Below are positions 3,512 through 19,053 of a stretch of 20,717 bases of DNA, piece by piece. Location: the UHGV virus genome UHGV-1961940; one strand, 5' to 3'. The first letter of the stretch is position 1; the number at the start of each line of letters is the position of its first letter. The DNA is from a virus. The position numbers and the translations under genes are program-made. The notes below the pieces were generated by a model. The model was not told where the DNA came from. It searched no databases and saw nothing but the letters and a program-made list of their open reading frames with translations.

Positions 3512-3517
3512 CTAGTG

Positions 3518-3724: not shown

Positions 3725-3729
3725 CTTGG

Positions 3730-3996
3730 CTACCCGTTCTTAATGATAGCACTGTAGTGAGATTTAGCTTCCTGAATGCAATGGGTCCAAGCATCAACCT
3801 TCTCTTCGAAAAGTCCAAAGAACTTCTTTTTGGTGAGCTTCAGATTCTTTAAGTGCTTAAGCACTCGGTTGCCGATTACAGCCACATCACGAAACTTAAG
3901 AATCACTTTGTCGATATCCTCGCGACCTATTTTCACAAAACAGGCCTTACACATTTCAGGGGAGGAATAACCAACTTTCCACATAAAATCTGACAT
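3730..3996 (-). CDS. hypothetical protein (88 aa)
   Basis: Track ORF, stop 6 nt before the next start. No motifs recognised. Confidence 0.45.
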   Translation of the reverse strand: MSDFMWKVGYSSPEMCKACFVKIGREDIDKVILKFRDVAVIGNRVLKHLKNLKLTKKKFFGLFEEKVDAWTHCIQEAKSHYSAIIKNG

Positions 3997-4008
3997 ACCA
4001 CCTTCTCC

Positions 4009-4311
4009 TTATTCCTTAAAAGCTATGATATCATAGGAACTTGCAGATGATTCTGGTGAAGAATGACTCCAGTCCAGGTCATCAGAATAGTCAGCGTACT
4101 GTGCGCCACTACGCAGTTTGTATTTTACCCACTTACCTGGTGCAGGGTTTTCACCACCTTCCCATACTTCCCAGCCTTCTGGCAGGCCGTCCTGAGCGTA
4201 GTCATCCACCTCACTAATGATCTTAGGGTTTGGCACCAAGATCCCCGCAGGCTCTTCCTTCCGGATAAGTGTCCACACAGCGTATGTGTCTGAGCAGGCG
4301 CATGATAGCAA
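4009..4311 (-). CDS. hypothetical protein (100 aa)
   Basis: Track ORF on the operon strand; Trp/acidic-rich. An antisense ORF (4063-4293 +) and an overlapping one (4125-4322 -) are less likely. Confidence 0.4.
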   Translation of the reverse strand: MLSCACSDTYAVWTLIRKEEPAGILVPNPKIISEVDDYAQDGLPEGWEVWEGGENPAPGKWVKYKLRSGAQYADYSDDLDWSHSSPESSASSYDIIAFKE

Positions 4312-4402
4312 AGTATATCCACTATTCAGAACTTCTGCAAGCTCTTTTCAGCATCTTCCAATTTGGCTAAGTGGTATTGGATAATCTTCACACCTGTAAT
4401 CA

Positions 4403-4708
4403 TCAGAAACCTCCCACTTCTTCAGCAAATGCAGCTGCTGTCGTCGCTGCATCCAGATAGGACTCTAGTTCACGGGCTGCACGTTTGTAAATTGAGTGGC
4501 GCATATCGTTTGGCAGTTGGTGGGAGTCCACCTCTTCACCGTTGTGGTAAACATGCACATCGGTGATTTGTCTAAATCCGTAACAGTCAACATCAGAATC
4601 CCGGCACTCCGGATCTGGCAACTGAACAACTGCCTGAGCTTCCACAGTAAACATATCGTCAAGTTCGAAATCGATTTCAAAAGTGTATGGTTTATAACGT
4701 TTCATCAT
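4403..4708 (-). CDS. hypothetical protein (101 aa)
   Basis: Track ORF immediately upstream of the methyltransferase stop, same strand. Confidence 0.4.
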   Translation of the reverse strand: MMKRYKPYTFEIDFELDDMFTVEAQAVVQLPDPECRDSDVDCYGFRQITDVHVYHNGEEVDSHQLPNDMRHSIYKRAARELESYLDAATTAAAFAEEVGGF

Positions 4709-4721
4709 TTGATTGTACTCT

Positions 4722-6047
4722 TTATTGATCAGAATTATCTTTCGTAATTAAGGTCTGGGTAAGTTTGTAATAGCGGAAGCCACCGCCACCTTGCCAGCTT
4801 GCAGACTTAGAAATACCACCTTGATCTTCACCATCAATCACTTTTTGCAAGCGAGGGATAATATGGGTATGACAATGATCACCCAGTTCGATCAAGATCC
4901 AACGTCTTTTCATCTTGTGGGCTACAGCAGCAGTAGTTCCCGAACCGCCGAATGAATCCAATACCAAATCACCTTCTCGCGTACACATTTCGAGAATCCG
5001 CTTCAAAAGCGCTTCTGGTTTTTTTCCATTTTTGAAACTAACGCCGCCTTCATTTGCTATTCCATTCCAACTAATGTCTGTCCAAACATCAGTTATTAGT
5101 TCCGCAGGTTGCATCTCACCGTCAATTTCCAAAAGCCTGTTGGAGTAAAAGACCATTTGCCTACCATTTGCGATATAAAATCCTTCAACATCCTCATTCG
5201 GATGTACATAAACCTTATCCCTATCTTTCTTTGACTTCTCGATAGTTTCTTTTCTCTTTATTTTAGCGCCACCACCAATTGCAACAGATTGAAATACACG
5301 TTCTGCATTATCAATTGCGAATTGTGCTAATTCATCATCGAATGTATCAGGCAGTTTTTTCTTGGCTTCTTTTGCATCTTTATAGCCATTGGCCTTTGCA
5401 AACGCATCGGCAATACCGCACCACGTCCAATTTTTATAATGGTCATCCGGGTTTAATAGGTATTTGTTATATCCTGTATCATACCCTTTAGGTATATAGA
5501 TTTTGTTAAGCGGTTTCTGGGTGCGATCTTTTGCATATACAAGCAAAAAGTTTGCTGTGGAGAAAACTGTGGCTCCTGTTGCCTTAAATCCCGAAGGGGA
5601 ATTTGTGGTCATCGATATGGTATTTAACTGATTTGCACGACCAAAAATCTCGTCCATCAAAACTTTTAAATACGCCATTTCGCAATCATCTAAGTGAACG
5701 AATATTACCCCATCATCACTTAGAAGATTACGAATTATTTCTAACCTATCCCTCATTAAGCCCAGCCAAATGGAATGCTCCAGGCTATCATCGTAATGCT
5801 CAAAAGCCCTCCCGGTATTGAATGGTGGGTCTATGTAAACACACTTCACTTTGCCTGCATACTCTTGCTCTAGCGCCTTCAATGCTAATAAGTTATCTCC
5901 AAAAATCAGTTTATTATCAAAAATATCGTTTTCGGTCACTTTCTGGCTGTGGTAAGATTTGCTAGAATCTTCTAACAAAATGTGTGGCTCTAACTTTTTG
6001 CGCTCGTTTTTACCTATCCAGGTAAGTTCTAATTTGGTTTTGCTCAT
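4722..6047 (-). CDS. Site-specific DNA methyltransferase, beta-class (N6-adenine or N4-cytosine; Mod-like / N6_N4_Mtase family); apparently orphan
   Basis: Motif IV 'IDPPFN' near the N-terminus (residue ~73) and AdoMet motif I 'DSFGGSGTTAAVA' near the C-terminus, giving the beta-class permuted order. N-terminal 'MSKTKLELTWIGKNE' is typical of Mod-type methyltransferases. No restriction-endonuclease partner recognised among neighbours. Confidence 0.85.
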   Translation of the reverse strand: MSKTKLELTWIGKNERKKLEPHILLEDSSKSYHSQKVTENDIFDNKLIFGDNLLALKALEQEYAGKVKCVYIDPPFNTGRAFEHYDDSLEHSIWLGLMRDRLEIIRNLLSDDGVIFVHLDDCEMAYLKVLMDEIFGRANQLNTISMTTNSPSGFKATGATVFSTANFLLVYAKDRTQKPLNKIYIPKGYDTGYNKYLLNPDDHYKNWTWCGIADAFAKANGYKDAKEAKKKLPDTFDDELAQFAIDNAERVFQSVAIGGGAKIKRKETIEKSKKDRDKVYVHPNEDVEGFYIANGRQMVFYSNRLLEIDGEMQPAELITDVWTDISWNGIANEGGVSFKNGKKPEALLKRILEMCTREGDLVLDSFGGSGTTAAVAHKMKRRWILIELGDHCHTHIIPRLQKVIDGEDQGGISKSASWQGGGGFRYYKLTQTLITKDNSDQ

Positions 6048-6074
6048 CGTTTGGTGCTCTCCTTAGTTTTTTGT

Positions 6075-6091
6075 GGGGAGGAGGCCTCCCC
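6075..6091. other. GC-rich hairpin (GGGGAGG-agg-CCTCCCC) in the intergenic gap upstream of the methyltransferase start
   Basis: 7-bp perfect stem read directly. On the coding (minus) strand it is followed by an A-run rather than a U-run, so it is not a canonical terminator for the operon. Confidence 0.3.
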
Positions 6092-6108
6092 TTTATACTC
6101 ACATCTTA

Positions 6109-6492
6109 CTACTCAAGGTCTTCAGAGTCAAGCTCAAAAAGAATCAAACTGTGCATGCCTGCAGATAGATTAACACACCCTGCAACAATAAGGGTCTGAT
6201 AGTAAGGTTCAGCACCCTCAATGTCTTCGTTAAAATCCACAACAAGGTAGTCACCTTTGTTAAAGGTGTATTTGTCCGATGTAAACGCAAAACCTGCCCA
6301 GTCCCCTACTGCAGGGTCTTTATCAGTCACCTTTGTTAACAGTAGATCTTTTTCACGGGATCTTTTAGTAAAATCGTGAATCACAACATCCTTCTCTTCA
6401 GGAGTTGGATTGCCACACACGTAGTTAACTATATTTCTCCACAAACTCATACGTCCCCTCTTCGGCTCTGGTTTCAAAATCTTTCCTGACAA
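6109..6492 (-). CDS. hypothetical protein (<=127 aa; start uncertain)
   Basis: Track ORF begins with TTG at 6492 and overlaps the helicase 3' end by 68 nt. An internal ATG at 6450 would shorten the overlap. Confidence 0.3.
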   Translation of the reverse strand: MSGKILKPEPKRGRMSLWRNIVNYVCGNPTPEEKDVVIHDFTKRSREKDLLLTKVTDKDPAVGDWAGFAFTSDKYTFNKGDYLVVDFNEDIEGAEPYYQTLIVAGCVNLSAGMHSLILFELDSEDLE

Positions 6493-7816
6493 TTTTGTCT
6501 AAGTCAGGGAATGTTGTATTGTAAAACTCTACGACTCGCGGGTCAACAATAATGTCAACTTCTCTTAGTGGACGCAACAAGTTTATTCCTTGTATTGTCT
6601 TAACCCGACTCAAAGCAACATACGTCATCCCAGGAGAGAAAGCTCCGTTCTTTCCAAGGTCCAGGTTGTAACAATCTAGCGTAAGTCCTTGACTTTTATG
6701 AGATGTTACGGCATACCCAGATTTCAGAGGAAGTTGCCTGTATGACCCAATCACTACCCTCTCTATAAACTTCTCCATCTTCCTTTCTGCAATGTTGTAT
6801 CTCTGAGATGGCTTATACTCGTTATTTTCCCACAACCTCTGCTCTATGTCAACCTGTGTTCCATCTTCAAGCTCTACCACCACCGCCTTGTTCTTAAATT
6901 TAACAATTGTGGCACGTGTTCCGTTAACATAATAAGGTACTTTGTGCGTCGGGTCAACATCGTTGGCGGTTATCATAACTTTCATGCCAATTTTCAACTT
7001 CATCTCCTGCTCAACTGGCAGGGTGGAGGGAAACTTACCCTTCATTTCACCAGTGTATACCTTCTCTGGGGCGTTGATGGCATCATAGAACCTTCTGTTC
7101 ACTTCCTCTGCTTGTTTGTTGGTGGCGCAAATTGTGAGAGCGTCTGTTGGTACACCGCCTTTGTAACAGCGAGCATTAAGTTCTGCTACAACCTCTTTTA
7201 TGCGACGACCCTCACGAACACAGTTGAGCATTGTGGCAAATCGAATAGACTCCTGTCGGAACTGGTCTATTAGGGCTATGTTGTGAAGGTCCAGCTCTTT
7301 CCAAGATTCGGTATAGCAACATAGGTCTGTGTGGTAGAAGTTGAAGTAGGCCTCCTTCTCCATAGAAGAGACAACAGGAGGTGCCTGGTAAAAATCGCCA
7401 AACAATATGACCTGTATGCCTCCGAAAGGTTTGTCATTTTTTCGAAGGAAGCGGAGTTTTCTATCCATCTCTATAAACTTATCAGCACGGATCATAGAGA
7501 TTTCATCGATAATTAGGATGGTAAATGCCTTGCTTTTCAAAGGCTTTGCTGTTTTTGCCCTTATTGCAGTCCAGTCAGACTCCATGCTCACACCTGCTGC
7601 AAGATCGAAGGTTCGGTGTGCTGTTGCTCCATTAACGTTTAAAGCGGCTACCCCTGTCGGGGCAACCGTTATGCAAGAGTCTCCATACATTGACTGGATC
7701 ATGTTGATGAGGTACGTCTTCCCACAACCTGCGGGTCCTGAAACGAAGACATTCTCCCCACTCATGATTGCAACAAGGGCAGCATCTGTGCCTACATCAT
7801 ACTGCCCTTTTTCCAT
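6425..7816 (-). CDS. SF1B DNA helicase, Pif1/RecD/Dda-like
   Basis: Walker A 'VSGPAGCGKTY', Walker B 'ILIIDEISM', 'FGDFYQAPPV' motif, 'AVTSHKSQGLT' and 'YVALSRVK' C-terminal motifs characteristic of the Pif1/RecD/Dda family. Confidence 0.85.
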   Translation of the reverse strand: MEKGQYDVGTDAALVAIMSGENVFVSGPAGCGKTYLINMIQSMYGDSCITVAPTGVAALNVNGATAHRTFDLAAGVSMESDWTAIRAKTAKPLKSKAFTILIIDEISMIRADKFIEMDRKLRFLRKNDKPFGGIQVILFGDFYQAPPVVSSMEKEAYFNFYHTDLCCYTESWKELDLHNIALIDQFRQESIRFATMLNCVREGRRIKEVVAELNARCYKGGVPTDALTICATNKQAEEVNRRFYDAINAPEKVYTGEMKGKFPSTLPVEQEMKLKIGMKVMITANDVDPTHKVPYYVNGTRATIVKFKNKAVVVELEDGTQVDIEQRLWENNEYKPSQRYNIAERKMEKFIERVVIGSYRQLPLKSGYAVTSHKSQGLTLDCYNLDLGKNGAFSPGMTYVALSRVKTIQGINLLRPLREVDIIVDPRVVEFYNTTFPDLDKIVRKDFETRAEEGTYEFVEKYS

Positions 7817-9021
7817 TACGCCTCCTCGTAGATAATGTCGATGATGTTACCATCACGGTCAACTACGTATTCAATCGGATCGCCATCTTTGCGTGATTCC
7901 GGTGCTGCTACGATTTCGTAGCGGCATGCACGGCACTTAGCACTGTTGTGTTGGTATGGCACACTAACCACATCCGCAGGGTCAACCATAACCATCATTA
8001 CAGTGCCATAGCCCGCTGCATACTCTTTGCTGGCGCAGTGCAGGCCATAAGAACACGCAGCTTCCGGATCATCTTCTACAAAGTTACGAGGCATGGACAC
8101 AAAAGCACCCTGGTATTGTGGAACTTTACCGCTGTGCCAATCCACCCACCTGCTCCCGTTAAACTGAACCCCCTTATAGCAAATGATTCGACCATCTTCT
8201 GCAACCTGGATGTCATTAGCCTGCATGAAATCGTAGAGCATGTTCACAGATTTTGCAGACGGGTTGCGTAGCAGACGGACAAGGAATTTAACATATCGGT
8301 CGTCCAGTGTTCCATCTACATAATCTTCCTCAATTTTCTTTGCAATGGTGGATCGCATCTCTACACCGTAGTAGTAGAGCTTACCATCTTTCATGATCAG
8401 GTTGTCTGCAAGTGTGGTGAACTCATTCTTGCGTTCCAGCCAGACAAGGATTTCACCAATTGCCTCATCATATTCCTGAACAGAAATATGGTCGAAGACT
8501 TTCTGGTAAACTTCCTCACTTTCGCTGCGGCGAATTTCAAAAATGCCTTCGTTGCAGGTGATCTGGAGGAGTTCCCCGCAAATAACTACCAAAGGCTCGA
8601 TGCTTCGAGACTGTTGCTGAGACACACTGCTCACTACTTCCAGCACCGGATCTTTGACTTCTACTAAAGGTTCTTCTGACTTGATTGCTACCCCAGTGAA
8701 CCCCACACCGTGAACAACACACAGTGGGTATACCACGCCCCAACGTTTAACGGAACCTTCACCTGAATCTAAGATCATGGCGTACTTACCGTTGTCTTCC
8801 AGTCCGTAGCGGAATAAACGGGCCTCTTCGCGGGTTTCAAAATCCTCACGGGTATAGCAGACACTGTCTCGGTCAGGATCAAACAGCTCTGGGGCACCTA
8901 CTGCCAGTGTCCATGTTGTAGTACCTTTCTCAATAGCACATGTGAAACCCTTCTTCTCAAGTTCTGCACGGCGGTCGCGTGCTTCTTTACGAGTTTTGAA
9001 ATGTTCGTAGATGAAAATCAT
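7816..9021 (-). CDS. rIIB: rIIB-like protein
   Basis: C-terminal half aligns by eye to T4 rIIB as I remember it: '...NPSAKSVNMLYDFMQANDIQVAEDG...MPRNFVEDD...SYGLHCASKEYAAGYG...VDPADVVSVPYQHNSAKCRACRYEIV' against the T4 '...NPSQKAVSRLFDFLVANDIEITEDG...MPR...DDD...GLHVCSK...HPRDVVSIP...NDAKMRTCQYEVV' pattern. Lies directly downstream of the rIIA-like gene. Confidence 0.75.
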   Translation of the reverse strand: MIFIYEHFKTRKEARDRRAELEKKGFTCAIEKGTTTWTLAVGAPELFDPDRDSVCYTREDFETREEARLFRYGLEDNGKYAMILDSGEGSVKRWGVVYPLCVVHGVGFTGVAIKSEEPLVEVKDPVLEVVSSVSQQQSRSIEPLVVICGELLQITCNEGIFEIRRSESEEVYQKVFDHISVQEYDEAIGEILVWLERKNEFTTLADNLIMKDGKLYYYGVEMRSTIAKKIEEDYVDGTLDDRYVKFLVRLLRNPSAKSVNMLYDFMQANDIQVAEDGRIICYKGVQFNGSRWVDWHSGKVPQYQGAFVSMPRNFVEDDPEAACSYGLHCASKEYAAGYGTVMMVMVDPADVVSVPYQHNSAKCRACRYEIVAAPESRKDGDPIEYVVDRDGNIIDIIYEEA

Positions 9022-9031
9022 AGCTGTCTCC

Positions 9032-11014
9032 TTATTTGGTGTTATTCTTTGCGTCGATCAGTTCACGGTATTCAATCATAGCAGGAGTGTCCCAATATTT
9101 CAAGCCCACATGCTTCAAAAGTGGATATTTCTTTTCCAATCTTGCAATATAGGCCTTCCCGCACTTGACTCGGTTGGCGATTAAGATTTTGGCACGATGA
9201 TTTAGCTCACTGTGCTTCCACGCGGTGTTACCTTCCCACTTGTGGAAATGTGGCCGATAATTTCCAAAATCTTGCATGGGGATAATTTTCCCTAATTGTC
9301 TATACAGGCTGTCATATGAAGTTTCATTTGCTGCGCGAGTCAGTAAGAATTTCCAAGCATCCTCTTTCAACAAATGTTCCACATTCTTCTCTGTAACATA
9401 CTGGCAATCAGGATCAGTCCAAAGCAGACGAGATTCTGATACCAAGTACAGATCTTCACCTTCAGGAATCTGGAGTGCAGCACGCACACGGTCATAATTT
9501 TGCTGGTAGATGTTACTCAGCTGTCCCAGCCAACAACTTCCACGTTGGATATCACCCTCATAAGGAATGCAGTGCTTAATCTTCTTGAACTCTGCCTTAG
9601 TAATACGTTCACGACGGAAGTAACCATCCTTCTCAAGCTTTTTAACCCAATAACCTGGCTCGTAATGAGTTTTTGTTTCACCTTTCTTCGCAGGTCGGCG
9701 AGGGAGCTCTGATAACAATTTGACAGTATCTGCAAAGAACGGATGGTGTGCCGCCTCTTTAAACTCTTTCACCAGATCCGTGTTCCGGCAATAGAAAACG
9801 TTGCGTCCGGTGATTTCGCTTAAGTAGTTACACTTATTTCGGTTATATTTACCATCTCCGTCGTTAAATACAAGGTATACACCTCGTAAGAACTCCGACT
9901 TTCCGTAACGAGCATAGCCTATGCGGCCTTTATTTAAGCCGCCAGCGAAAATTTCACAATCGCCTAAGTCGCCAAGCCCTGTTTCTTCCCAACGGTTCCA
10001 CATAAAGTTTTTGCCGAAGATGTGTCCGAACACTCCACTATTCTTCATCATTTCACGTGCTTCTGCGGAGGTTTTTGCCGTCTCCAGTTCTGCAATAACT
10101 TCTGCCCCGCGAAGACGTATACCTTCTTTGACAAAGGCCTCCAGGCGATCCTGGAATCCACCGTCGTCATGGCCCTCTATGGTCCATTCACGCCCAGGGT
10201 TAATATTGCAATCCCCAATAGGAATTTCCACGCAGATTGCAGGGTAATCGGTCAATGTCTCCAGGAACTTGGAGCGGTAAGGTTGGTGACCCATCACAAC
10301 ACGGCTCTCATCAGAACTGGTATAACCTTTCAGGATGGTCATTTTCCAGCCATCCTTCTCGTAATGATACTGTGCCTCAACCTTGTCACCTTCTAACATC
10401 TTACTGGTCATAGGATCGGTGACGATGAACGGAAACTTCGCATAGCGTAAGCACGATGCAATAGCAGTGCAATATTTCAGGACATGCTCTTTCTTAACAT
10501 GGAACTGAACTTTTACCCCGTTGTGCTCTTCAGTCTTCCGCTCACGGATCTTGGTAACGTTTGGGATACCCTGATCCAAGAACAATAGATATGTGCTTTC
10601 AACACCATTGTGCACACTGATCACATCGAAAGTGTCCACCATACTGAACGGAGCCTTTGAACCAACACCTTTATTACCTACCAGAGCGTTGCTGTTGCGC
10701 TTGGTTGACTCCCCGAGATTCATGAAAGTGTTGCGGACCATCTCTTCTGACATGCCCAATCCAACGTCCTGCACAAAGAAGTATGGTTCAAGGTCTGTAG
10801 GAGAGTGAATGATGATCGGTACATCACCCCGTCCAGACTCAACATGGGAGTCCACAGCATTGAAGATTGGTTCACGGCAGCTTGCCAGCACCTTATCTTC
10901 GTAAATCCCTTTAATGATTAGCCCAAAAGTCTCTTTGTTCAGAGAAATTGAGCCCCTGGTGACCTCCATATTTCCGGTCAGCACTGCTTTAGTTTCATTA
11001 CTGTTTACAATCAT
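9032..11014 (-). CDS. rIIA: rIIA-like protein with N-terminal GHKL (histidine-kinase-like) ATPase domain
   Basis: GHKL boxes: N-box 'REPIFNAVDSH', G1 'VQDVGLGMS', G2 'VGNKGVGSKAPFSMVDTFDVISVHNG'. These resemble the T4 rIIA N-terminal 'RELITNMIDAH...DFGPGMS...[25 protein letters not shown]' as recalled. Followed by rIIB-like gene in the canonical order. Confidence 0.75.
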   Translation of the reverse strand: MIVNSNETKAVLTGNMEVTRGSISLNKETFGLIIKGIYEDKVLASCREPIFNAVDSHVESGRGDVPIIIHSPTDLEPYFFVQDVGLGMSEEMVRNTFMNLGESTKRNSNALVGNKGVGSKAPFSMVDTFDVISVHNGVESTYLLFLDQGIPNVTKIRERKTEEHNGVKVQFHVKKEHVLKYCTAIASCLRYAKFPFIVTDPMTSKMLEGDKVEAQYHYEKDGWKMTILKGYTSSDESRVVMGHQPYRSKFLETLTDYPAICVEIPIGDCNINPGREWTIEGHDDGGFQDRLEAFVKEGIRLRGAEVIAELETAKTSAEAREMMKNSGVFGHIFGKNFMWNRWEETGLGDLGDCEIFAGGLNKGRIGYARYGKSEFLRGVYLVFNDGDGKYNRNKCNYLSEITGRNVFYCRNTDLVKEFKEAAHHPFFADTVKLLSELPRRPAKKGETKTHYEPGYWVKKLEKDGYFRRERITKAEFKKIKHCIPYEGDIQRGSCWLGQLSNIYQQNYDRVRAALQIPEGEDLYLVSESRLLWTDPDCQYVTEKNVEHLLKEDAWKFLLTRAANETSYDSLYRQLGKIIPMQDFGNYRPHFHKWEGNTAWKHSELNHRAKILIANRVKCGKAYIARLEKKYPLLKHVGLKYWDTPAMIEYRELIDAKNNTK

Positions 11015-11511
11015 TTATTGCGCTCCTTGTAGTAGATATGGCTCCCGAATTGAGTTGTCCTCTGCATCTTTTTTGCCCATTTCGGTCGTACTTTGGTTGT
11101 ATGGTAGTGTGTTGCTCCACCTGTTATGTCCATAGCCATGTATGCAACATGGTTGTTATTATAGACCTTTATAAGCATCTTTGCAAGACTTTTAGCGTGA
11201 TCCCATGAATCTTTTTCTGTCACCTTAAAAGTTTTGCCGTGGTTTGTCCACGAAAACTGGTTAGGTTGGTAGACAATCTTTCTTATAGTGTCTGGGTATT
11301 TAGGGTGGGATTTCCTGTTTAGTGTGGCAAACCCAGATGCCAGCATACCCATCGTGCCATCTCCTCTAGCTTCCCTGTAGATATTGCATGCCAGAATGTT
11401 TTCCTTAGTATCTGATGGCTTGCAAGTATGATATACTTTTTGTTTTGGTGCTGCAACAACAGGCAGCGATAAAAGTGCGCTCAAAATAATAGCAAAGATC
11501 TTAATTTTCAC
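11011..11511 (-). CDS. Secreted cell-wall hydrolase, SleB/Hydrolase_2 family (probable lysis enzyme)
   Basis: N-terminal signal peptide 'MKIKIFAIILSALLSLPVVAAP'. SleB-family motifs 'NIYREARGDG', 'FATLNRKSHPKYPDTIRKIVYQPNQFSW'. GTG start at 11511 with a GGAG RBS. Confidence 0.75.
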   Translation of the reverse strand: MKIKIFAIILSALLSLPVVAAPKQKVYHTCKPSDTKENILACNIYREARGDGTMGMLASGFATLNRKSHPKYPDTIRKIVYQPNQFSWTNHGKTFKVTEKDSWDHAKSLAKMLIKVYNNNHVAYMAMDITGGATHYHTTKVRPKWAKKMQRTTQFGSHIYYKERNK

Positions 11512-11520
11512 AATGACTCC

Positions 11521-11548
11521 AAATAGAAAATCCCCGCCGAAGCGGGGG
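11521..11548 (-). terminator. Rho-independent terminator (minus strand)
   Basis: Minus-strand RNA CCCCGC-UUCG-GCGGGG stem-loop followed by UUUUCUAUUU. Lies between the stop of the upstream ORF (11561) and the lysin RBS. Confidence 0.6.
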
Positions 11549-11560
11549 AGGTCTTAGAAA

Positions 11561-11943
11561 TTAATCGTAGTGTGCCAAAATCTCTCCATCGTTGCAAGTT
11601 CCCTCTACAAAGTTATGAAGATTCATGCACTCATCTTGATAGAAGAATTTACCGCTTTTCAGCCGTAGGCCAAACAACTCCGCATCTCCACGATGGCAAG
11701 CCTCTACAAGTTCATAGATTTCATACGGCAACTCTCCGTCGTCATGGAAGAATCCAGCCTTATCGTTGACATAAATGAAGAAATAATCACTGCTATCGCA
11801 AGCGTCCAATATTTTAAACCAGACTTCATCTACATCTTTTTCTCGGATATCGATCACGCAAGTGGAACTGCATTCGTACTCCTTCTCCGGCTCCTCGGTC
11901 AATACCACCAGGTAGTTTCCCCGCTTACCTACTTTAGCCATAC
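11561..11943 (-). CDS. hypothetical protein (~126 aa from ATG 11943; track ORF extends to 11989)
   Basis: ATG at 11943 is preceded by 'AAGGGGG' and avoids the 38-nt overlap with the upstream gene. No motifs recognised. Confidence 0.5.
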
Positions 11944-11951
11944 AACCCCCC

Positions 11952-13136
11952 TTAAGCTTTAGCCAAAATGGCGCTAAACTCTTCACCAAACTCTTTTACA
12001 ATCTTCATCAGGTTTGGGTATGCTTTGATCAGCTGAGCAACAATCTTGTCACGCCCTTTACCGATAAGCAAGGCATTTCCTAAGGCATTAGGTTTCATCA
12101 TCGCCATAAAGACTGAGAATACAAAATCTCGGTTCTCGTCCTTGAAGTTTTCCCAAAGGAAATCGAGGAAGTTTGCCACGCAGCTGACAAGATCTTCGTC
12201 TGAGATACTTGCATTTTCCATCATATTGCGAATAGCGATACAACCTTCAGATCCAAGAATCCACAAAATGTCTGGCTGCTTAGGACCTACGTATTCTTTG
12301 CAGCCACCTGCCATAATCCGACCGATTTCCGGTAAATTACGTTTCTTGGTGTGGTAAGTCCAGATCTCTACCGCTGCAGTGTGACCAATAGCACCTTGTA
12401 GAAGAACACGGGCCATAGCGTCAGAAATAATACCGCTGTCAAAATCGTGCAAGATGTCAGATGCAGCAACCCAAGATCGTGGTGTGGCAAAAGATGGACA
12501 ATTAATCTCAGCCATAGCCTCATAATTATCAATAGCTGATGGAACTCTTTTCAGATACCCAATTACAGAGGAGTGAACCCCGTTGAGGAATGCGTAGTCC
12601 TCAATAAACACCTCTGCATTGCTTGTAACCTCTACAATGATAAAACGGTTAGCCAGAGGGGCTTCGAGCGCCGAAAGAACCGCACCATCTGTAGAACGGT
12701 TACCCGCAGCCACAAAAACAGAACCCTTAGGGAATGCATAGGTGCCGCACTTGTGGTCAAGCATAATTTGCATTGCAACCTTTTGCAGGTAGTTATCTGC
12801 ATGAGTGAGCTCATCCAGAAAGATAATTCCGCTCCAGTCAGGATCCGCAGGCCAAAATTCTGGAATTGCAAACACTGTACGTGTAGTTCCATCCGCTTCT
12901 ACAGGGATAGGTAGCCCAGATAAGTCGGCAGGATCTTTATCTGACAGTCGCACGTCAACAAGGTTGTCATCTCGCTCACCGAACATATTATCAGCGATCT
13001 GCTTCATCACCTGGCTTTTACCCACACCCATTGGTCCCAAAATTAGGACAGATCGGCTATGACGTTGGGCAAACTGAATAATAGCTGGCAACTCACGGAC
13101 AGTGATTTGACCACTTTCGAATACGTTTCTTGACAT
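11952..13136 (-). CDS. MoxR-like AAA+ ATPase (AAA_5 / CbbQ-NorQ-CobS-like)
   Basis: Walker A 'LILGPMGVGKSQ', Walker B 'IIFLDELTHAD', and a sensor-1 region 'VFVAAGNRSTDGA...LEAPLANRF' that resembles the MoxR 'ATxNP...L..A..DRF' pattern. Confidence 0.8.
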   Translation of the reverse strand: MSRNVFESGQITVRELPAIIQFAQRHSRSVLILGPMGVGKSQVMKQIADNMFGERDDNLVDVRLSDKDPADLSGLPIPVEADGTTRTVFAIPEFWPADPDWSGIIFLDELTHADNYLQKVAMQIMLDHKCGTYAFPKGSVFVAAGNRSTDGAVLSALEAPLANRFIIVEVTSNAEVFIEDYAFLNGVHSSVIGYLKRVPSAIDNYEAMAEINCPSFATPRSWVAASDILHDFDSGIISDAMARVLLQGAIGHTAAVEIWTYHTKKRNLPEIGRIMAGGCKEYVGPKQPDILWILGSEGCIAIRNMMENASISDEDLVSCVANFLDFLWENFKDENRDFVFSVFMAMMKPNALGNALLIGKGRDKIVAQLIKAYPNLMKIVKEFGEEFSAILAKA

Positions 13137-13405
13137 TAGTAAAAGTCCTCTACTTGTGTGTAAGTGTTTTCAAAGTTTTCCAAAACAGATATCACATCGA
13201 ATCTGTCAATATCATACGTGACTCTCCAGTTGTACGCAACCCTTTCTGCTGTTGCCTCTTCTGGCGCTAGTCGTCTGCTGGCATAAAAGAGTGTTGGAGT
13301 ACACTTTCTTGCTTGCCCTCTAACTTTCCCATAATAATATCTGTGAATATCTTTGTCAAAATTTAACTCTTTTTCTGCACGAAGTTCATATTGCTGGTAT
13401 AACAT
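13136..13405 (-). CDS. hypothetical protein (89 aa)
   Basis: Track ORF; its stop overlaps the AAA+ ATPase start. Confidence 0.4.
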   Translation of the reverse strand: MLYQQYELRAEKELNFDKDIHRYYYGKVRGQARKCTPTLFYASRRLAPEEATAERVAYNWRVTYDIDRFDVISVLENFENTYTQVEDFY

Positions 13406-13449
13406 CTCTACTACTCCTTAAGCAGCATCCTTGCCGCCATTCCTGCCCA

Positions 13450-13830
13450 CTAAAATGCAGTCCGAATCCAGACAAGGTTCTTATCTGCCCAATCATAGAG
13501 GCAAGTCATTGCACTATTGAATTGCTCACACGGAGGATAATCTTCTTCCATCTGGCGCATAGCAGAGCCTTGTGGGTAAAGCTCCCGTGCTGCAAACCAC
13601 GCATCGTAGTCATCAACGGTGTCGAAGTAGTATACAACATCCTCTAACTCAGGATCGAACTTTGAACTATCAGGATCCAGTTGTTCAGGGAACTTGGAGC
13701 GTAACTTGCCAGCCACAATACTTGCCAACTCGCTAACATGCTTATTGTCCCACTCCACTAGCTTCCCGTCTTCAGTGATGCGTCCTAACCACTGATCATG
13801 AAGGTCAACTGTTGTCTTCCACTGAGCCAT
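13450..13830 (-). CDS. hypothetical protein (126 aa), acidic and Trp-rich
   Basis: Track ORF in the operon orientation. Confidence 0.45.
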   Translation of the reverse strand: MAQWKTTVDLHDQWLGRITEDGKLVEWDNKHVSELASIVAGKLRSKFPEQLDPDSSKFDPELEDVVYYFDTVDDYDAWFAARELYPQGSAMRQMEEDYPPCEQFNSAMTCLYDWADKNLVWIRTAF

Positions 13831-13832
13831 TA

Positions 13833-14090
13833 TCAGTCCACCTCTTCTTCTCGTTGTAGTTCAAGATACCCGTAGGTCTGGACATCTTGAAGGGTGTGGA
13901 ACTCCCCCTCTGCCGCTAAGGCACGAACAACTTGGCACAAAACCTTATGAGGAACTTCATCCAAACCTAGATTCAGTGCAGGAAACACCTTATCTAAGTC
14001 AACAAAATAAACGAACTGTAGCTCACCAGCTTCAAAAGGTGTATCTTCAATAAACATCTTCTCGGCATTAGTCAAGATCTGCACTTTCAT
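13833..14090 (-). CDS. hypothetical protein (85 aa), acidic C-terminus
   Basis: Track ORF; ATGA start/stop overlap with the upstream gene at 14090. Confidence 0.45.
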   Translation of the reverse strand: MKVQILTNAEKMFIEDTPFEAGELQFVYFVDLDKVFPALNLGLDEVPHKVLCQVVRALAAEGEFHTLQDVQTYGYLELQREEEVD

Positions 14091-14446
14091 TATTCTACCT
14101 CCTCTTCTTTTTCTTCGGCATTAGTTTCATGGCTACCCCACTCGGGAGTTTCCACCTCGATAGTAAACTCACGCACTACACGGTAATTGCCCATGAAGCG
14201 CTCTACTTCGTCAAGGCTTATGGAGAGGCCATTGGCAACCAGGTCTGCAGCACCCTCTTCTACCAGGTAGTCCAGATTGGCTTCCAGAGCCTCAGGTTCA
14301 AACCCTGTCAATGCAATCAGATAACCTTCCCCTTCATCAGGGAGGACAATACAGCCCAATTGATTTTCTTTAAAAAGGCAGTGACCATCATTATTGATTG
14401 GGTGTTCATTGCAGTAAATAGCTGCACGATAAGTAACTTTAGACAT
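14090..14446 (-). CDS. hypothetical acidic protein beginning MSKVTYRA (118 aa from ATG 14446; track ORF starts at TTG 14467)
   Basis: AAGGAG RBS 9 nt upstream of the ATG at 14444-14446, and an in-frame TGA two codons upstream of the TTG. The start region lies inside the 29-bp inverted repeat. Confidence 0.5.
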   Translation of the reverse strand: MSKVTYRAAIYCNEHPINNDGHCLFKENQLGCIVLPDEGEGYLIALTGFEPEALEANLDYLVEEGAADLVANGLSISLDEVERFMGNYRVVREFTIEVETPEWGSHETNAEEKEEEVE

Positions 14447-14451
14447 CGGTA
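14423..14451. repeat. Left copy of a perfect 29-bp inverted repeat (reverse complement of 16285-16313)
   Basis: Checked base by base: the reverse complement of 14423-14451 is 'taccgatgtctaaagttacttatcgtgca', identical to 16285-16313. Both flanks mismatch immediately outside the 29 bp. Confidence 0.9.
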
Positions 14452-14459
14452 AGGTCTCC

Positions 14460-14738
14460 TTAGGCAATTGTCATTTTACATTCTTGAAATTTTAACACAA
14501 GACGGTAATTGTGTCTAGTGTCTAAAAAGATTTTTTCAACCATCAGGCACACGGTATAACCGTCCATCTTGTTGACAACAAAATCTCCAGGATGAGGGAG
14601 GATGTCTCCCGGATTGGGGAAACATAGTCCACTCAGAAAGGCATCGTCAGTGGTGGACTTAATAGATTTCCACACACTGTCTGCCTGAACATGTTCACCG
14701 ACGTAATATACATTACCACATGCCTTCATCATAGTCAA
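14460..14738 (-). CDS. hypothetical protein (92 aa)
   Basis: Track ORF; ATGA overlap with the upstream 299-aa gene. Its TAA stop overlaps the RBS of the next gene. Confidence 0.45.
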   Translation of the reverse strand: MTMMKACGNVYYVGEHVQADSVWKSIKSTTDDAFLSGLCFPNPGDILPHPGDFVVNKMDGYTVCLMVEKIFLDTRHNYRLVLKFQECKMTIA

Positions 14739-15634
14739 ACCCTCGCATAAATTAAACTTGTATCAGTATACTTCTTTAATGGGTAAATATCCTGTCCATA
14801 GATGCAATCATTAAACACCTCATCTACCCAAAGGCTACACTTATATCCCATCATTTCTAAAACACCCATCTCTTCTTCGGTAAACTTATCACCGCTCTTG
14901 CAAGATGTCAATACCTCATTCTGAACTCTTGCTACCTCGAAGCGGTTATTGGCAATATCGCTATTGGCGATCAAATACTCACCTAGAGGGTGTGCGGCAT
15001 TAAAGATGCACAGTGGACGGCTGACGTAATAGTCTCCAGGTGTATAAAAATTGTTGAGGTCTTTCACTAGAACATTCTTATCAGTCACTTCATTTATAAC
15101 ATCATGCATATCGCACATCTTTATATGTTTGAGGATTCCATCCCCCATCACAAAATAAAAACTTGCTGAGACACTTTCGGCATAGATCTTACTAGATCCG
15201 TTGTAGTTGTATTTTACTCGGATGCTAACGGGGGTTTTTCCTGTCGCGTTAGCCATCATCCAAAGAAATGGCAGCTCATACTTCTCCTCTGAGGAAACAA
15301 AAGGTGAGGTAGCCAGAGATCGAAAACCTCCAGAGAAGTTGAAAGTTACAGAACCGCTCCGGCGGTATGATACCGCGTATTCTACTTTTATATCGACATA
15401 CCCATTGGAATAGGTGTGTCCTTCATTATCTAAATATGTCCACTTATCAGACCCAGATACCAATCTACGCTCAATAACCTTCATCACTATAGGAATTAAT
15501 GGGTTGGTACAAACCGCTTTTGAAGTAGCTTTATCATCTAAAGCCTCGTAAATTGCAGAAAGGATGTCCCCAGCTGAAAGATTGGTTGTTATGTCCTGTT
15601 TCCACCGCGTACTAAAACTGTTAAGATTTGCCAT
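14735..15634 (-). CDS. hypothetical protein (299 aa), first gene of the leftward operon
   Basis: AGGAG RBS 9 nt upstream of the ATG at 15634, and a near-consensus promoter directly upstream. No motifs recognised. Confidence 0.6.
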   Translation of the reverse strand: MANLNSFSTRWKQDITTNLSAGDILSAIYEALDDKATSKAVCTNPLIPIVMKVIERRLVSGSDKWTYLDNEGHTYSNGYVDIKVEYAVSYRRSGSVTFNFSGGFRSLATSPFVSSEEKYELPFLWMMANATGKTPVSIRVKYNYNGSSKIYAESVSASFYFVMGDGILKHIKMCDMHDVINEVTDKNVLVKDLNNFYTPGDYYVSRPLCIFNAAHPLGEYLIANSDIANNRFEVARVQNEVLTSCKSGDKFTEEEMGVLEMMGYKCSLWVDEVFNDCIYGQDIYPLKKYTDTSLIYARV

Positions 15635-15674
15635 AAGTAAGTGCTCCTATGTTAGTTTTCTTTCGAATGGGTGC

Positions 15675-15703
15675 ACTATATTGTGGAGTTAGAGTAAAGT
15701 CAA
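15675..15703 (-). promoter_or_regulatory. Sigma70/SigA-type promoter for the leftward operon (-35 TTGACT, 17-nt spacer, -10 TATAGT)
   Basis: Minus-strand reading 'TTGACT ttactctaactccacaa TATAGT': -35 at 15698-15703, -10 at 15675-15680, about 40 nt upstream of the ATG at 15634. Confidence 0.45.
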
Positions 15704-15721
15704 CACGTTTTTGATGTTGAC
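15699..15721. promoter_or_regulatory. Palindrome GTCAACA-N9-TGTTGAC spanning back-to-back -35 elements (candidate operator)
   Basis: Perfect 7-bp inverted arms at 15699-15705 and 15715-15721. The left arm contains the leftward -35; the right arm contains TTGACA (15717-22), which with 17-nt spacing to 'TACGAT' (15740-45) gives a possible rightward promoter. Confidence 0.4.
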
Positions 15722-16754
15722 ATCTGTTGAGACAATTGATACGATTTCTTCACTTACAGAGCACGAGAGACGACTCATGAATCTTGAAAAATATTATACA
15801 CCAGAAGAGTTAGAGCGCTTGCTCAAAAAATATAGACGCAAACAGAATAACGCACGGAAACGAGATATAGAGTTCGACCTGTCATGGGAAGAATACCTCC
15901 TATTTGGTAAAAAACTTTTAGGAGATGGAGTATGCGACTATACCCTTATACCTTTTGACATGCACACAGATGAAAACGGGCTGGGGAATCCTTTCTACCC
16001 ATCCCTGGAGCGGATAGATGATGAAGGTCCTTATGCGGTTGATAACTGTTGTGTGGTGGGATTGAGATGCAACTCTCTAAAGGACTGTCTGGTAGATAAA
16101 AAGACTGCAGTCTTGATTAAAGACGAAACTGATCGAAAAATTGTCCAGCAGATGATGCTCCACCTGAGCGAAGAGCGTATGGAGAAATTGAAAGGTGATT
16201 ATACTTTTGAAGATTTCATCTTGCAATATGGAACGGAAGAGGATAAACTAGCACTCTTTGACGAAGAAGAGGAGGAAGATATGCTACCGATGTCTAAAGT
16301 TACTTATCGTGCACCCAAGAAGCACATTTCCGACATTGTAAACGAGCCTATCACAGAAGAGATTGAAGAAATGACGCAACAGGTGCATGAAGAGGAAAAA
16401 GAGACTCAGGAGGTCGAAGAGGAGCTTACAGAAGAGGTTCCTGCACTACCTGATGATGTTGAGATTGCCAAAGCTTACACTTTCTATTGTCAAACGTTCT
16501 ACGATGTAGGTATGAAAGTTGATCTGTCGTTCAGCCAATTTAAGAGTTCGTATATTCGCAAATGCTGTGCTTTAACTGGTGAACGTCTTGGAGCTGGACT
16601 TAAACCCCTGTTGGTGACCGACTGGAATAAAGGTTTCACTAAAGGAAACTTTATGGTAGTATCTCCAATTATGAAGAAAGCTATGACAGATCTTATGAAG
16701 ACCACCCGCATGACAATGACCGAGTTGGCAGGTATTTTCAAACACGTTAAATAA
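15711..16754 (+). CDS. Hypothetical protein (347 aa by track): basic/Cys N-terminal domain with possible degenerate HNH/His-Me-finger-like motif, acidic linker, distinct C-terminal domain; start uncertain
   Basis: 'YRRKQNNARKRDIEFDLSWEEY...CDYTLIPF...PSLERIDDEGPYAVDNCCVVGLRCNSLKD' loosely resembles small phage HNH-type endonuclease domains, but with Arg where the catalytic His would be. Acidic runs 'DEEEEED', 'EEEKETQEVEEELTEE'. If the rightward promoter at 15717-45 is real, translation more likely starts at ATG 15777. An internal RBS (GGAGG) plus ATG at 16281/16290 coincides with the 29-bp repeat. Confidence 0.55.
   Translation: MMLTSVETIDTISSLTEHERRLMNLEKYYTPEELERLLKKYRRKQNNARKRDIEFDLSWEEYLLFGKKLLGDGVCDYTLIPFDMHTDENGLGNPFYPSLERIDDEGPYAVDNCCVVGLRCNSLKDCLVDKKTAVLIKDETDRKIVQQMMLHLSEERMEKLKGDYTFEDFILQYGTEEDKLALFDEEEEEDMLPMSKVTYRAPKKHISDIVNEPITEEIEEMTQQVHEEEKETQEVEEELTEEVPALPDDVEIAKAYTFYCQTFYDVGMKVDLSFSQFKSSYIRKCCALTGERLGAGLKPLLVTDWNKGFTKGNFMVVSPIMKKAMTDLMKTTRMTMTELAGIFKHVK
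16285..16313. repeat. Right copy of the perfect 29-bp inverted repeat (see 14423-14451)
   Basis: 'taccgATGtctaaagttacttatcgtgca' read directly; in frame it encodes (L)PMSKVTYRA inside the 347-aa ORF. Confidence 0.9.
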
Positions 16755-16759
16755 TGACA

Positions 16760-16774
16760 GGGGCCAATGGCCCC
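16760..16774 (+). other. Palindromic hairpin GGGGCCA-a-TGGCCCC between the 347-aa gene stop and the VWA gene
   Basis: Perfect 7-nt arms read directly, followed by a T-rich 'ttctggagtttta'. It contains the ATG at 16767, suggesting the real start of the next gene is ATG 16788. Confidence 0.3.
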
Positions 16775-18248
16775 TTCTGGAGTTTTAATGGATAGCAGAA
16801 GTTCAGAAATCATTGCCTCGCAGAAAGATGATGCCCTGAGAATGTTGCAGGCTGCACGTATGTATCTCCTTGAAAAGCTGCCGTTTTATGGCACACTACT
16901 GTCAGGGTTGCAGTTCGTAGAAAACCACACATGGTGCTCCACCATGGCAACCGACCATAAACGCATCTATTACAGTCCTGAGTTCATTATGGGATTGGCT
17001 GATGAACGCAAGGCTATTCTTAAGGCTTCTCTAACTGACGAGCAGTTTGAGATGGCTGAAGTTTTCTATTCTCCAAAATCTGTGAAAGAGGTGGCCTTCC
17101 TTCTGTCACATGAGGTGGGGCATATTATCTGTGATCACCTAGTCCGTGGTAAAAGCTTTGAGCCGGAACTGTTCAATATTGCTTGTGATCACGTTATCAA
17201 CACAGGCCTTGTGGTTGACTTTAGCAAACCTCCTTGTGTTTTCTTCCCGAAGGGGAAAAGCACTACGTTCATGAAAGGTAAGCCTTTTGGCTTCTTAGCC
17301 AGCTGCTACTGCGACATGAAGTTTCATGGATGGATTGCTGAGAACGTTTATGCAGTTCTTGATAAGCAAAGAGATCAGAATAACGGTAAAAGTAAGAACG
17401 GTAAAGGTGAGAACTCTCAAAGTGATAAGCGACAAACCGATGATCACATGAGTGGGAACGGTGGCACCAGTGATAATCTTGGAAAGGCTATGGGGTATGA
17501 TCAGCCACAACCTGTAATCAGCCAATCTGATAAAGATCAGGCCATGCAGGACTCTGGTGATATGCTGGAGGCAGCAATGCAAGCGTCCGGAGGCCGTTGC
17601 CCTGAGGCGGTGCGTGAGTTTGTCAAGAACAGAGGTAAGCCTGTAATCAACTATATAGACATCATTAAGCAACGTATGTTGTCTAAAAGAAAGGCCGAAC
17701 TGACCTACAGAAAACCTGGTCGCCGATCTGGGTCTTTGACCAGCACAATGCGAAAAGTTGGGGCTATAAACAAGAACCAGCACGTTATTGTTCCTGGTCG
17801 TAATCCGGAAAACACTATAGATATTGTGGTGGCTTTAGACGTTTCTGGCTCGATCTCTCAAAGAACTTTAAAGAAAATGTTCAATGAAATCACCGGATTG
17901 TGCAATCTGTATAAAGAGTTTAAGGTTACAATGTTCTGTTGGTCAACTGAGGTTGGAGAGGTTAAAGTATACACTCGCGGCAACATAGACGAGATGGTCA
18001 ACTATGAGGTCCACTCAACATGGGGCACAACAGCTGCTTGCGTGTTCGAGTATCTGGATGCCAACATACCTAATGCAAAAGATGTCATCGTCCTGACCGA
18101 CCTATACTTTGAGCATAACTTTGAACAAAAGGTTGTTGACAACAAGTGGAAAAAGTACGATACTCTATGGGTCCTCACTGAGGGGTATAATAAAAATTAT
18201 ATCCCGAGCTTTGGGAAAACTGTGGAATTAATCGAGTACGCTAAGTAA
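16767..18248 (+). CDS. VWA-domain protein with N-terminal putative HExxH metallopeptidase domain (DUF2201-like architecture); likely starts at ATG 16788
   Basis: Zinc-metallopeptidase motif 'LSHEVGHIICDHL'. VWA MIDAS motif 'VVALDVSGSIS' in the C-terminal half. GGAG 5 nt upstream of ATG 16788. Confidence 0.7.
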   Translation: MAPSGVLMDSRSSEIIASQKDDALRMLQAARMYLLEKLPFYGTLLSGLQFVENHTWCSTMATDHKRIYYSPEFIMGLADERKAILKASLTDEQFEMAEVFYSPKSVKEVAFLLSHEVGHIICDHLVRGKSFEPELFNIACDHVINTGLVVDFSKPPCVFFPKGKSTTFMKGKPFGFLASCYCDMKFHGWIAENVYAVLDKQRDQNNGKSKNGKGENSQSDKRQTDDHMSGNGGTSDNLGKAMGYDQPQPVISQSDKDQAMQDSGDMLEAAMQASGGRCPEAVREFVKNRGKPVINYIDIIKQRMLSKRKAELTYRKPGRRSGSLTSTMRKVGAINKNQHVIVPGRNPENTIDIVVALDVSGSISQRTLKKMFNEITGLCNLYKEFKVTMFCWSTEVGEVKVYTRGNIDEMVNYEVHSTWGTTAACVFEYLDANIPNAKDVIVLTDLYFEHNFEQKVVDNKWKKYDTLWVLTEGYNKNYIPSFGKTVELIEYAK

Positions 18249-18263
18249 GAGAGGAGGTTATTT

Positions 18264-18527
18264 ATGGCAACAGAGTTAAAATTTGCATCAAACCGTAAAA
18301 CTAAGAAGTATCTGTCCTCAGTAGCTCCAGGCACTGTGGTGATGTTTGTTGATGAACTTGGGGATGTGAATACAGCACTTGTTGTAAAATCACATCCTGC
18401 AAACATATATGTTGGGGTATTTGACCTGTTCAGAAAGGTGTTTGTAGAACTGCCTCACAGTTTGGTTGTTACAGAAATGGATGCCTGCATAGAAATTCTT
18501 GGCGAAGTTATGGTGGAGGAACAATAA
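18264..18527 (+). CDS. Small protein, paralog family member A (87 aa)
   Basis: RBS 'GAGGAGG' upstream. Shares 'MAT...F.S..K.KK...GTVV...VK...FDL...LP...VTE.D..I.ILGE' with the next ORF. Confidence 0.6.
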   Translation: MATELKFASNRKTKKYLSSVAPGTVVMFVDELGDVNTALVVKSHPANIYVGVFDLFRKVFVELPHSLVVTEMDACIEILGEVMVEEQ

Positions 18528-18790
18528 TGGCTACCAGCATTGTATTCAATTCTAAGGTGAAGAACAAAAAGCGTGCAGACAGTTTTCCGTGTGGGACCGT
18601 GGTAAGTTGCGACGGAGACGGCATTCAAAACATAGTTATGATTGTCAAAACAGGAGAACATTGTGTGTGGGGGTTCGATTTAGAAAATAATGAGTTGTAC
18701 GATCTGCCGCCAAACATGAAAGTTACAGAGCTTGACACCAAAATTACCATCCTTGGAGAGACAAGCTATTCAAAAGAAGGAGGAGAATAA
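18527..18790 (+). CDS. Small protein, paralog family member B (87 aa)
   Basis: Start overlaps the preceding stop; GGAGG RBS. About one third identical to member A by eye. Confidence 0.6.
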   Translation: MATSIVFNSKVKNKKRADSFPCGTVVSCDGDGIQNIVMIVKTGEHCVWGFDLENNELYDLPPNMKVTELDTKITILGETSYSKEGGE

Positions 18791-19053
18791 TGACCACAAA
18801 AATCACTATCGCAGAACCGAAAGCTAACACTCAGCCTATCGAAAAGTTTAAGTACGGTGAGGTGGTAACATTCACACCAGATAATGAAGATGCTAAGATT
18901 TTCGCAATGGTCACAGCTGAGTGGATGTGTGACAACACCACACAGGTTCTGCGTTTTGACACCTATCTTACCGATGAAATCAGGAACGACAAGATTGTGA
19001 CTGGTGTGGATACTGAGATTGTTTTCTACAAGAGCTTTTTAGAGGGTTTCTGA
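18790..19053 (+). CDS. Small protein, paralog family member C (87 aa)
   Basis: Same length and start/stop overlap; AGGAGG RBS. Shares the 'G.VV...V...FD...VT..D..I' pattern more distantly. Confidence 0.55.
   Translation: MTTKITIAEPKANTQPIEKFKYGEVVTFTPDNEDAKIFAMVTAEWMCDNTTQVLRFDTYLTDEIRNDKIVTGVDTEIVFYKSFLEGF

Follow-up and report, generated by a model that had tools for sequence, protein, structure and literature searches.

Two genes of the virus genome UHGV-1961940 encode a MoxR-type AAA+ ATPase, gp4, and a protein, gp12, in which an N-terminal zincin-like metallopeptidase domain is followed by a C-terminal von Willebrand factor A (VWA) domain. Both are located between positions 11,952 and 18,248 of a stretch of 20,717 nucleotides (nt), which is termed the window in this report, on opposite arms of a divergent promoter region (Table 1). 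Probably, gp4 and gp12 represent, in Vequintavirus, a conserved two-component machine that is specific to phages, the gp24/gp25 family of phage N4; it would act by the ATP-driven remodelling and cleavage set out below. Homology, motifs, folds, co-occurrence and gene-order history are the direct basis of this reading. The mechanism is proposed by analogy with NorQ-NorD, CbbQ-CbbO and RavA-ViaA.

The region belongs to a Vequintavirus (rV5-like) coliphage. A megablast search with positions 11500–18300 matched 122 phage records, all of them Vequintavirus (rV5-like) myophages. The best match is Escherichia phage Murica with 99.9% identity from end to end (window coordinates correspond to Murica coordinates plus 9031).

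The AAA ATPase gp24 and the vWFA protein gp25 of N4 are encoded by two of the 14 genes that form the core of N4-like phages, the Schitoviridae (PMC4193335). They are direct homologues of gp4 and gp12 (BLASTP E-values of 3e-28 and 2e-20, respectively) and share the domain make-up, the HExxH motif, the metal ion-dependent adhesion site (MIDAS) and a neighbourhood of rIIA/rIIB, helicase and nucleotide-metabolism genes. In the deposited N4 sequence, both genes are noted to have counterparts in bacteria ('similar to S. coelicolor proteins 1 and 2'). The proteins of the window are longer than those of N4 (394 versus 352 and 486 versus 380 amino acids, at identities of 27% and 22%). Furthermore, the N4 genes are adjacent and co-directional, whereas those of the window lie 3.6 kb apart on opposite arms. 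The same architecture, a MoxR ATPase and a vWA protein with N-terminal metallopeptidase, has been described for group 2.2 jumbo phages and read as a chaperone-cochaperone pair with peptidase (Iyer et al. 2021, Viruses 13:63; PMC7824862). That description is confined to jumbo phages, proposes a role in virion assembly and does not discuss the split arrangement of rV5-like phages.

The module as such is already known. Its genes, domains, bidirectional promoter, core status in N4 and the phage pairing of MoxR, vWA and metallopeptidase are all present in annotation or literature (PMC7824862, PMC4193335). The sole point not found stated elsewhere is the separation of the otherwise adjacent pair in rV5/Seunavirus-type phages, which is a minor gene-order variant. 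Modules of the N4 gp24/gp25 type are present in at least 600–800 sequenced phage genomes of very different architecture. The substrate of this widespread AAA+/VWA/zincin machine is a real gap, to which the window adds little compared with N4 or other carriers.

The ATPase gp4 and the VWA-zincin protein gp12

A preliminary description of the window, made from the DNA letters, had placed a MoxR-family ATPase at 11952–13136 of the minus strand. The gene is confirmed and its class is supported. The open reading frame (ORF) of 394 codons contains Walker A (GPMGVGKS, 13014–13037) and Walker B (IIFLDE, 12810–12827) as well as the motifs AAGNR and PLANRF of the sensor 1 and arginine finger regions, respectively. 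The Walker A, Walker B, sensor 1 and arginine-finger columns are invariant across 13 homologues, as in an AAA+ core. The protein is deposited as 'ATPase' in Murica and as 'MoxR ATPase' in rV5, LL12 and FFH2.

The assignment to the MoxR class is drawn from relatives and from folds. At an E-value of ~1e-44 gp4 is related to thousands of proteins of ~360 amino acids that carry AAA_3, AAA_5 and sometimes bpMoxR domains. Relatives at 33–36% identity carry these MoxR signatures, and four relatives at 31–33% identity match AAA_5, AAA_3 and bpMoxR with E-values of 2e-9, 3e-8 and 1e-5, respectively. In a search of the PDB with the gp4 family profile, midasin AAA domains are the best match. The top eight Foldseek matches of the gp4 model (pLDDT 75.5) are all NorQ, with E-values of 5e-7 to 3e-5, and precede ClpC, RuvB and MCM. 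NorQ belongs to the MoxR class of ATPases and has the VWA protein NorD as its partner (cryo-electron microscopy of NorQD, PMC13036017). In the model of gp4, a β-hairpin at residues 75–90 follows strand 2 and appears to sit where the helix-2 insert of the MoxR clade lies. On its own gp4 does not reach the Pfam thresholds and its TM-scores to NorQ are low, so that its membership rests on transitive homology. Together with the structural evidence, this homology leads us to accept gp4 as a divergent MoxR-like ATPase. NorQ-NorD differs from the phage pair in being a cellular system that inserts iron into nitric oxide reductase and in the lack of a peptidase domain in NorD, and the identity is only 15–18%.

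The same description gave the partner as a VWA/HExxH protein at 16767–18248 of the plus strand. The reading frame, the HEVGH and MIDAS motifs and the DUF2201 families were found as expected, but the start has to be shifted. The ORF opens at 16767 and this ATG falls inside a GC-rich hairpin, whereas the start deposited for Murica and Gotham is 16788, with GGAG 6 nt upstream. Most likely, gp12 starts at 16788. Murica gp12 is deposited as 'metallopeptidase, contains von Willebrand factor domain'. Both Pfam families score above threshold: DUF2201_N (PF13203) with an E-value of 4e-28 (99.1 bits, cut-off 23.2) and DUF2201 with 3e-11 (44 bits).

The catalytic and metal-site residues of gp12 were compared in alignments of 16 diverse homologues with identities down to 24%. 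Both histidines of the HExxH motif (HEVGH, 17109–17123, residues 108–112) are invariant and the glutamate (Glu109) is present in 15 of the 16. Arg120 and the residues Asn130, Ala132, Asp134 and Asn138 of an NxAxDxxxN motif are invariant as well, and His117 is also conserved. The full MIDAS (DxSxS...T...D), which includes DVSGS at 17838–17852 and comprises Asp351, Ser353, Ser355, Thr414 and Asp438, is invariant throughout. The linker between the peptidase and VWA domains (residues ~284–341) has low model confidence and contains a conserved YRRPxRRS motif.

Fold searches show that the C-terminal domain adopts a VWA fold and that the model matches NorD and BchD. These matches would also suit a metal-insertion chaperone like NorQD, CobST, BchID or CoxDE, in which the HExxH domain would be a metal-binding or structural element instead of a protease. 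Most characterised MoxR/VWA or chelatase pairs do insert metals (PMC13036017, PMC9976466), and nucleotide-metabolism enzymes are encoded nearby. Nevertheless, this function is quite improbable for gp4 and gp12. Retention of HExxH with the catalytic glutamate in nearly all of the diverse homologues, together with conserved His117 and Asp134, fits an active zincin. Moreover, there is no one candidate metalloenzyme common to the rV5-like, N4-like and jumbo carriers.

Two irregularities of annotation concern the VWA-zincin protein. The families phrog_1314, which contains it, and phrog_3118, which contains gp11, are labelled 'HNH endonuclease', and many RefSeq/GenBank phage records carry this name. 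Applied to the VWA-zincin protein, the label is almost certainly an error passed on from record to record. The protein aligns with the rV5 reference sequence (NC_011041.1 / DQ832317, 7756–9214) in two pieces that overlap two annotated features, which points to a frameshift or a sequencing mistake there.

Co-occurrence and divergent arrangement of the two genes

The neighbourhood of the ATPase gene was surveyed in 80 IMG/VR loci with an ATPase homologue, and gaps were measured between stop-to-stop ORF bounds. In 69 of these loci the next gene after the ATPase, on the same strand, is the VWA (DUF2201) gene, and the median gap is 72 nt. Thus, the expectation that such pairs normally adjoin and point in the same direction is correct for this family. 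In eight of the other 11 loci the contig stops immediately behind the ATPase gene, in one a radical-SAM-like gene is inserted ahead of the contig end, and two are split. The pair is adjacent in N4, in the 347-kb jumbo phage Muenster, which has homologues of both genes, and in the contigs L003 (164 kb) and L005 (146 kb, rV5-like). In locus L004 both genes are on one strand with four small genes between them. In Escherichia phage A7_1 (L093; unclassified Vequintavirinae) they are together with an HNH homing endonuclease gene wedged in between (10285–10779).

In the IMG/VR contig L043, a radical-SAM-like (CxxxCxxC) gene at 2961–3983 is placed between the ATPase and VWA positions. Evidently, the junction tolerates insertions such as this one and that of A7_1.

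A tblastn search of 50,697 phage records gave the same counts for the ATPase and the VWA protein in Escherichia (211/211), Pectobacterium (26/26), Cronobacter (17/17) and Campylobacter-labelled (16/16) phages, and ~118 Vequintavirus records for each of the two genes. None of the loci examined had space for both genes and contained only one. Given the adjacency and the concordant record distributions, the ATPase and VWA genes can be regarded as a single unit in N4-like podophages, rV5-like myophages and jumbo phages alike. Almost every carrier of one gene has the other as well, and the partnership of gp4 and gp12 is well supported. The idea that they are functional partners has accordingly stood up in all three respects in which it might have failed, namely the MoxR class of the ATPase, the VWA fold and the co-occurrence.

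Cellular DUF2201_N/DUF2201 proteins that are paired with MoxR ATPases have the same Pfam families on the VWA partner. The ATPase subfamily of the window is set apart from these cellular pairs. When 185,579 species genomes were scanned with the ATPase profile by a pattern-based procedure of limited sensitivity to distant relatives, only four loci were found. All four are phage-like contigs of metagenome-assembled genomes; three contain the adjacent pair and one is too short to tell. From this distribution the ATPase subfamily looks phage-specific.

The ATPase and VWA genes of the window are located on divergent arms with starts 3.63–3.65 kb apart, in agreement with the ~3.6 kb given in the preliminary description. 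The ORF map consists of a single long minus arm (711–15634) and a plus arm that begins at 15711, and the sign of the GC skew flips at ~15.6 kb, at the strand switch. Within the switch, σ70-like promoters lie back to back (minus strand, 15703 to 15675; plus strand, 15717 to 15745). Both −35 hexamers are contained in a palindrome with arms of 7 bp (GTCAACA...TGTTGAC, 15699–15721). Phage Gotham has predicted promoters at the corresponding site, and bidirectional promoters between rV5 genes 10 and 11 have been reported (Kropinski et al. 2013, PMC3606486).

Thus the palindromic promoter region that had been proposed is present, but its sharing by the two genes is a positional statement only, because gp4 comes seventh on its arm and has a promoter-like site of its own, and gp12, the second gene of the other arm, is located behind gp11 and a hairpin. 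The site upstream of gp4 is a near-consensus σ70-like sequence (TTGACA-17-TATTAT, 11 of 12 matches) on the minus strand within gp5 (13359 to 13331), ~200 nt upstream of the gp4 start. It could give gp4 its own transcript. On the plus strand, the hairpin has a weak T tract.

The divergent split is indeed unusual for the family. It was seen only in Vequintavirus (the window, L001, L002 and L006), to a 53%-identical relative of the Mydovirus/Raoultella-phage type (L007) and to Seunavirus SSE121 (L092). The Dda-helicase/SleB arm is also present in the unsplit L004, L005 and A7_1, but there the ATPase and VWA genes are both found on the opposite arm, just past the divergent switch. Since these phages keep both genes on the arm opposite the Dda-helicase/SleB arm, the adjacent order ATPase–VWA is ancestral and the split is a derived, lineage-specific rearrangement. 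The ATPase gene moved across the divergent promoter to the other arm in an ancestor of Vequintavirus, Seunavirus and relatives, one sub-lineage of the Vequintavirinae. The rearrangement was either an inversion across the switch or a translocation. Homologues of gp3 and gp5–gp11, by which a single inversion might be traced, were not found in the unsplit L004 and L005 at E ≤ 1e-3.

A split of this kind might mean that the partnership was lost in Vequintavirus, with independent roles for the two proteins and a linkage elsewhere that is of historical origin. The distance of 3.6 kb, the different transcription units and the position of gp12 behind the hairpin and of gp4 behind six genes, with its own promoter-like site, are in line with such a loss. 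It is very improbable, though, in view of what has been retained. Both genes are kept intact in ~118 Vequintavirus records and in the Seunavirus and Mydovirus-type relatives at 45–53% identity, all catalytic and MIDAS residues are conserved, and no genome with a single gene was seen where both could fit. With the genes on opposite arms and both retained intact, the proteins must assemble in trans, and evidently this suffices. The split implies that co-translation from one mRNA is not needed and provides a natural system in which each gene can be perturbed independently.

Proposed mechanism and stage of infection

By analogy with the characterised pairs, gp4 presumably forms a hexameric ring. 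The VWA protein gp12 would dock on this ring as a cofactor, and its MIDAS metal site would grip an acidic residue of the target protein. ATP hydrolysis would then remodel the client, or the linker of gp12 itself, and the N-terminal HExxH zincin would cut the remodelled target or gp12. Given the zincin domain of gp12, the likely output is cleavage of the remodelled client. The YRRPxRRS motif of the linker is a plausible candidate for a handle of the ATPase or for an autoprocessing site.

Expression of the module probably falls in the early or middle stage of infection, together with that of replication and nucleotide-metabolism genes, so that the target is more likely a host or non-structural phage protein than a virion protein. 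Such a non-structural role is favoured by three lines of evidence. In four phage groups that are unrelated to one another, the neighbours of the pair include genes of replication, rII and nucleotide metabolism; gp24/gp25 of N4 adjoin genes for dCTP deaminase, rII and helicase, and thymidylate synthase is encoded nearby in L003 and Muenster. N4 gp24/25 are middle transcripts in addition to being core genes (PMC4193335). Finally, gp4 and gp12 are not among the virion proteins named in the main text of the rV5 proteome paper. In the window, a family scan identifies a primase-helicase, an N6/N4 DNA methylase, a Dda/PIF1-type helicase, rIIB and rIIA as neighbours, and the minus arm encodes a SleB-type cell-wall hydrolase. 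With these genes and the Srd-like factor gp11, the region is an early/middle, replication-associated part of the genome.

The same machine might instead be a virion-assembly chaperone with a maturation protease, in which the pair would act in the folding or assembly of head or tail proteins and these would be processed by the zincin. This role has been proposed for jumbo phages with reference to the MoxR-vWA pair of Acidianus two-tailed virus (Iyer et al. 2021, PMC7824862), and in some N4-like roseophages virion protein genes are near the gp24/gp25 homologues (PMC4193335). In the Acidianus virus, p618 (MoxR) and p892 (VWA) are likewise a viral pair with a proposed chaperone role. p618/p892 differ from gp4/gp12 in lacking a peptidase domain, in belonging to an archaeal virus and in acting in extracellular tail growth. 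For the phages considered here, a function in assembly is unlikely. The genes of the window, N4, Muenster and L003 are located in the early/middle region of replication and nucleotide metabolism, far from structural modules, and the middle transcription of N4 gp24/25 points the same way. The main text on the rV5 virion proteins does so too, although a chaperone need not be packaged.

Several observations weigh against the assignment of gp4/gp12 to an early or middle remodelling protease. Every Pfam AAA threshold is missed by gp4: the best match, AAA_14, has 20.7 bits (cut-off 27), AAA_5 (PF07728) reaches an E-value of 0.0075 with 16.7 bits (cut-off 22) and AAA_3 (PF07726) gives no match. The Foldseek TM-scores of gp4 versus NorQ are 0.28/0.42. 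The N-terminal peptidase fold of gp12 has no match to a solved structure in fold searches, which are dominated by the VWA domain, and a sequence-profile search of the PDB yields only non-significant matches to Ste24/HtpX around HExxH. The expression timing in Vequintavirus is deduced from gene position only, and Iyer et al. (2021) prefer the role in virion assembly (PMC7824862). In the literature on the rV5 genes, N4 gp24/gp25 and DUF2201, annotation tables but no functional data were found; in the CRISPRi-ART paper, the targets in the rV5-like phage EdH4 and in N4 were confined to capsid and rII.

A more specific form of the remodelling protease is conceivable but doubtful. The pair would be an ATP-driven targeting protease of the early or middle stage, in which the MoxR ring unfolds or opens a specific MIDAS-captured host protein, e.g. 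a defence, nucleoid or replication factor, for cleavage by the zincin. If this were true, it would be a new class of phage effector for host takeover or anti-defence, conserved from N4-like podophages via rV5-like myophages to jumbo phages, and the split in Vequintavirus would show its assembly in trans.

Other features of the region

Table 1. Positions of gp4, gp12 and associated features in the window.
Feature	Position	Strand	Remarks
gp4, MoxR-type AAA+ ATPase, 394 aa (amino acids)	11952–13136	−	ORF; phrog_1297 'ATPase' (2e-110); rV5/Murica gp4; N4 gp24 orthologue
Left arm of 29-nt inverted repeat	14423–14451	−	covers gp8 translation start (..LPMSKVTYRA)
Divergence point of both gene arms	15635–15776		back-to-back σ70-like sites, palindrome
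gp11, Srd-like putative anti-sigma factor	15777–16754	+	phrog_3118, phrog_4592, phrog_1400; deposited annotation; PMC3606486
Right arm of 29-nt inverted repeat	16285–16313	+	inside gp11, same LPMSKVTYRA
GC-rich perfect hairpin, AGGGGCC-aat-GGCCCCT	16759–16775		between gp11 and VWA gene; terminator in Murica deposit
gp12, N-terminal zincin-like metallopeptidase (DUF2201_N) and C-terminal VWA (DUF2201), 486 aa	16788–18248	+	rV5/Murica gp12; N4 gp25 orthologue

The inverted repeats of 29 bp that had been noticed between the two genes are present and their arms are 100% complementary; in 7 kb, chance would account for ~1e-10 pairs of this kind. A connection with the ATPase-VWA pair was not borne out. 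Both arms are coding and each reads (L)PMSKVTYRA in the sense of its own gene. The copy in gp11 is located in the acidic linker that joins two HNH/Srd-like halves. As the arms are inverted and lie on opposite strands, the mRNAs of gp8 and gp11 share an identical string of 29 nt, from −5 to +24 around the ATG. This string may provide an internal start in gp11 or a common site of translational control. In the close relative L006 (ATPase 98% identical), the gp8 copy has one mismatch and the gp11 copy is absent. An invertible DNA switch between the repeats was considered and rejected, as a query with the chimeric junction found the inverted junction in none of 118 matching genomes and the repeat is not conserved in L006. 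The repeat arose by local duplication or gene conversion of coding sequence and has no apparent link to the pair.

As the first gene of the plus arm, gp11 is located between the promoter and the VWA gene and does not belong to the ATPase-VWA module. The 347-residue ORF 15711–16754 upstream of the VWA gene was also considered as the true partner of the ATPase and was rejected; its product is Srd-like, of the anti-sigma/HNH-like type, and has no ATPase domain. Library scans with PADLOC and NCBIfam gave noise only.

Directly 3' of the VWA gene, three tandem ORFs (gp13, gp14 and gp15; 18264–19053) encode 87 residues each. They are paralogues, the second and third with 38% and 19% identity to the first, and the motifs G-x-VV and VTE-D-I are conserved. 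On the minus arm, the DNA methylase (4722–6047, 441 residues) matches N6_N4_Mtase over residues 67–393, yet this span covers 216 profile positions only; the catalytic domain thus seems to hold an insertion of ~100 residues. Finally, 16 'Campylobacter phage' records with C. jejuni as host (e.g. MG065635, MG065655, MG065677 and MG065654) are 98–99.6% identical to E. coli Vequintavirus in this region. Their host label may result from contamination or mislabelling.

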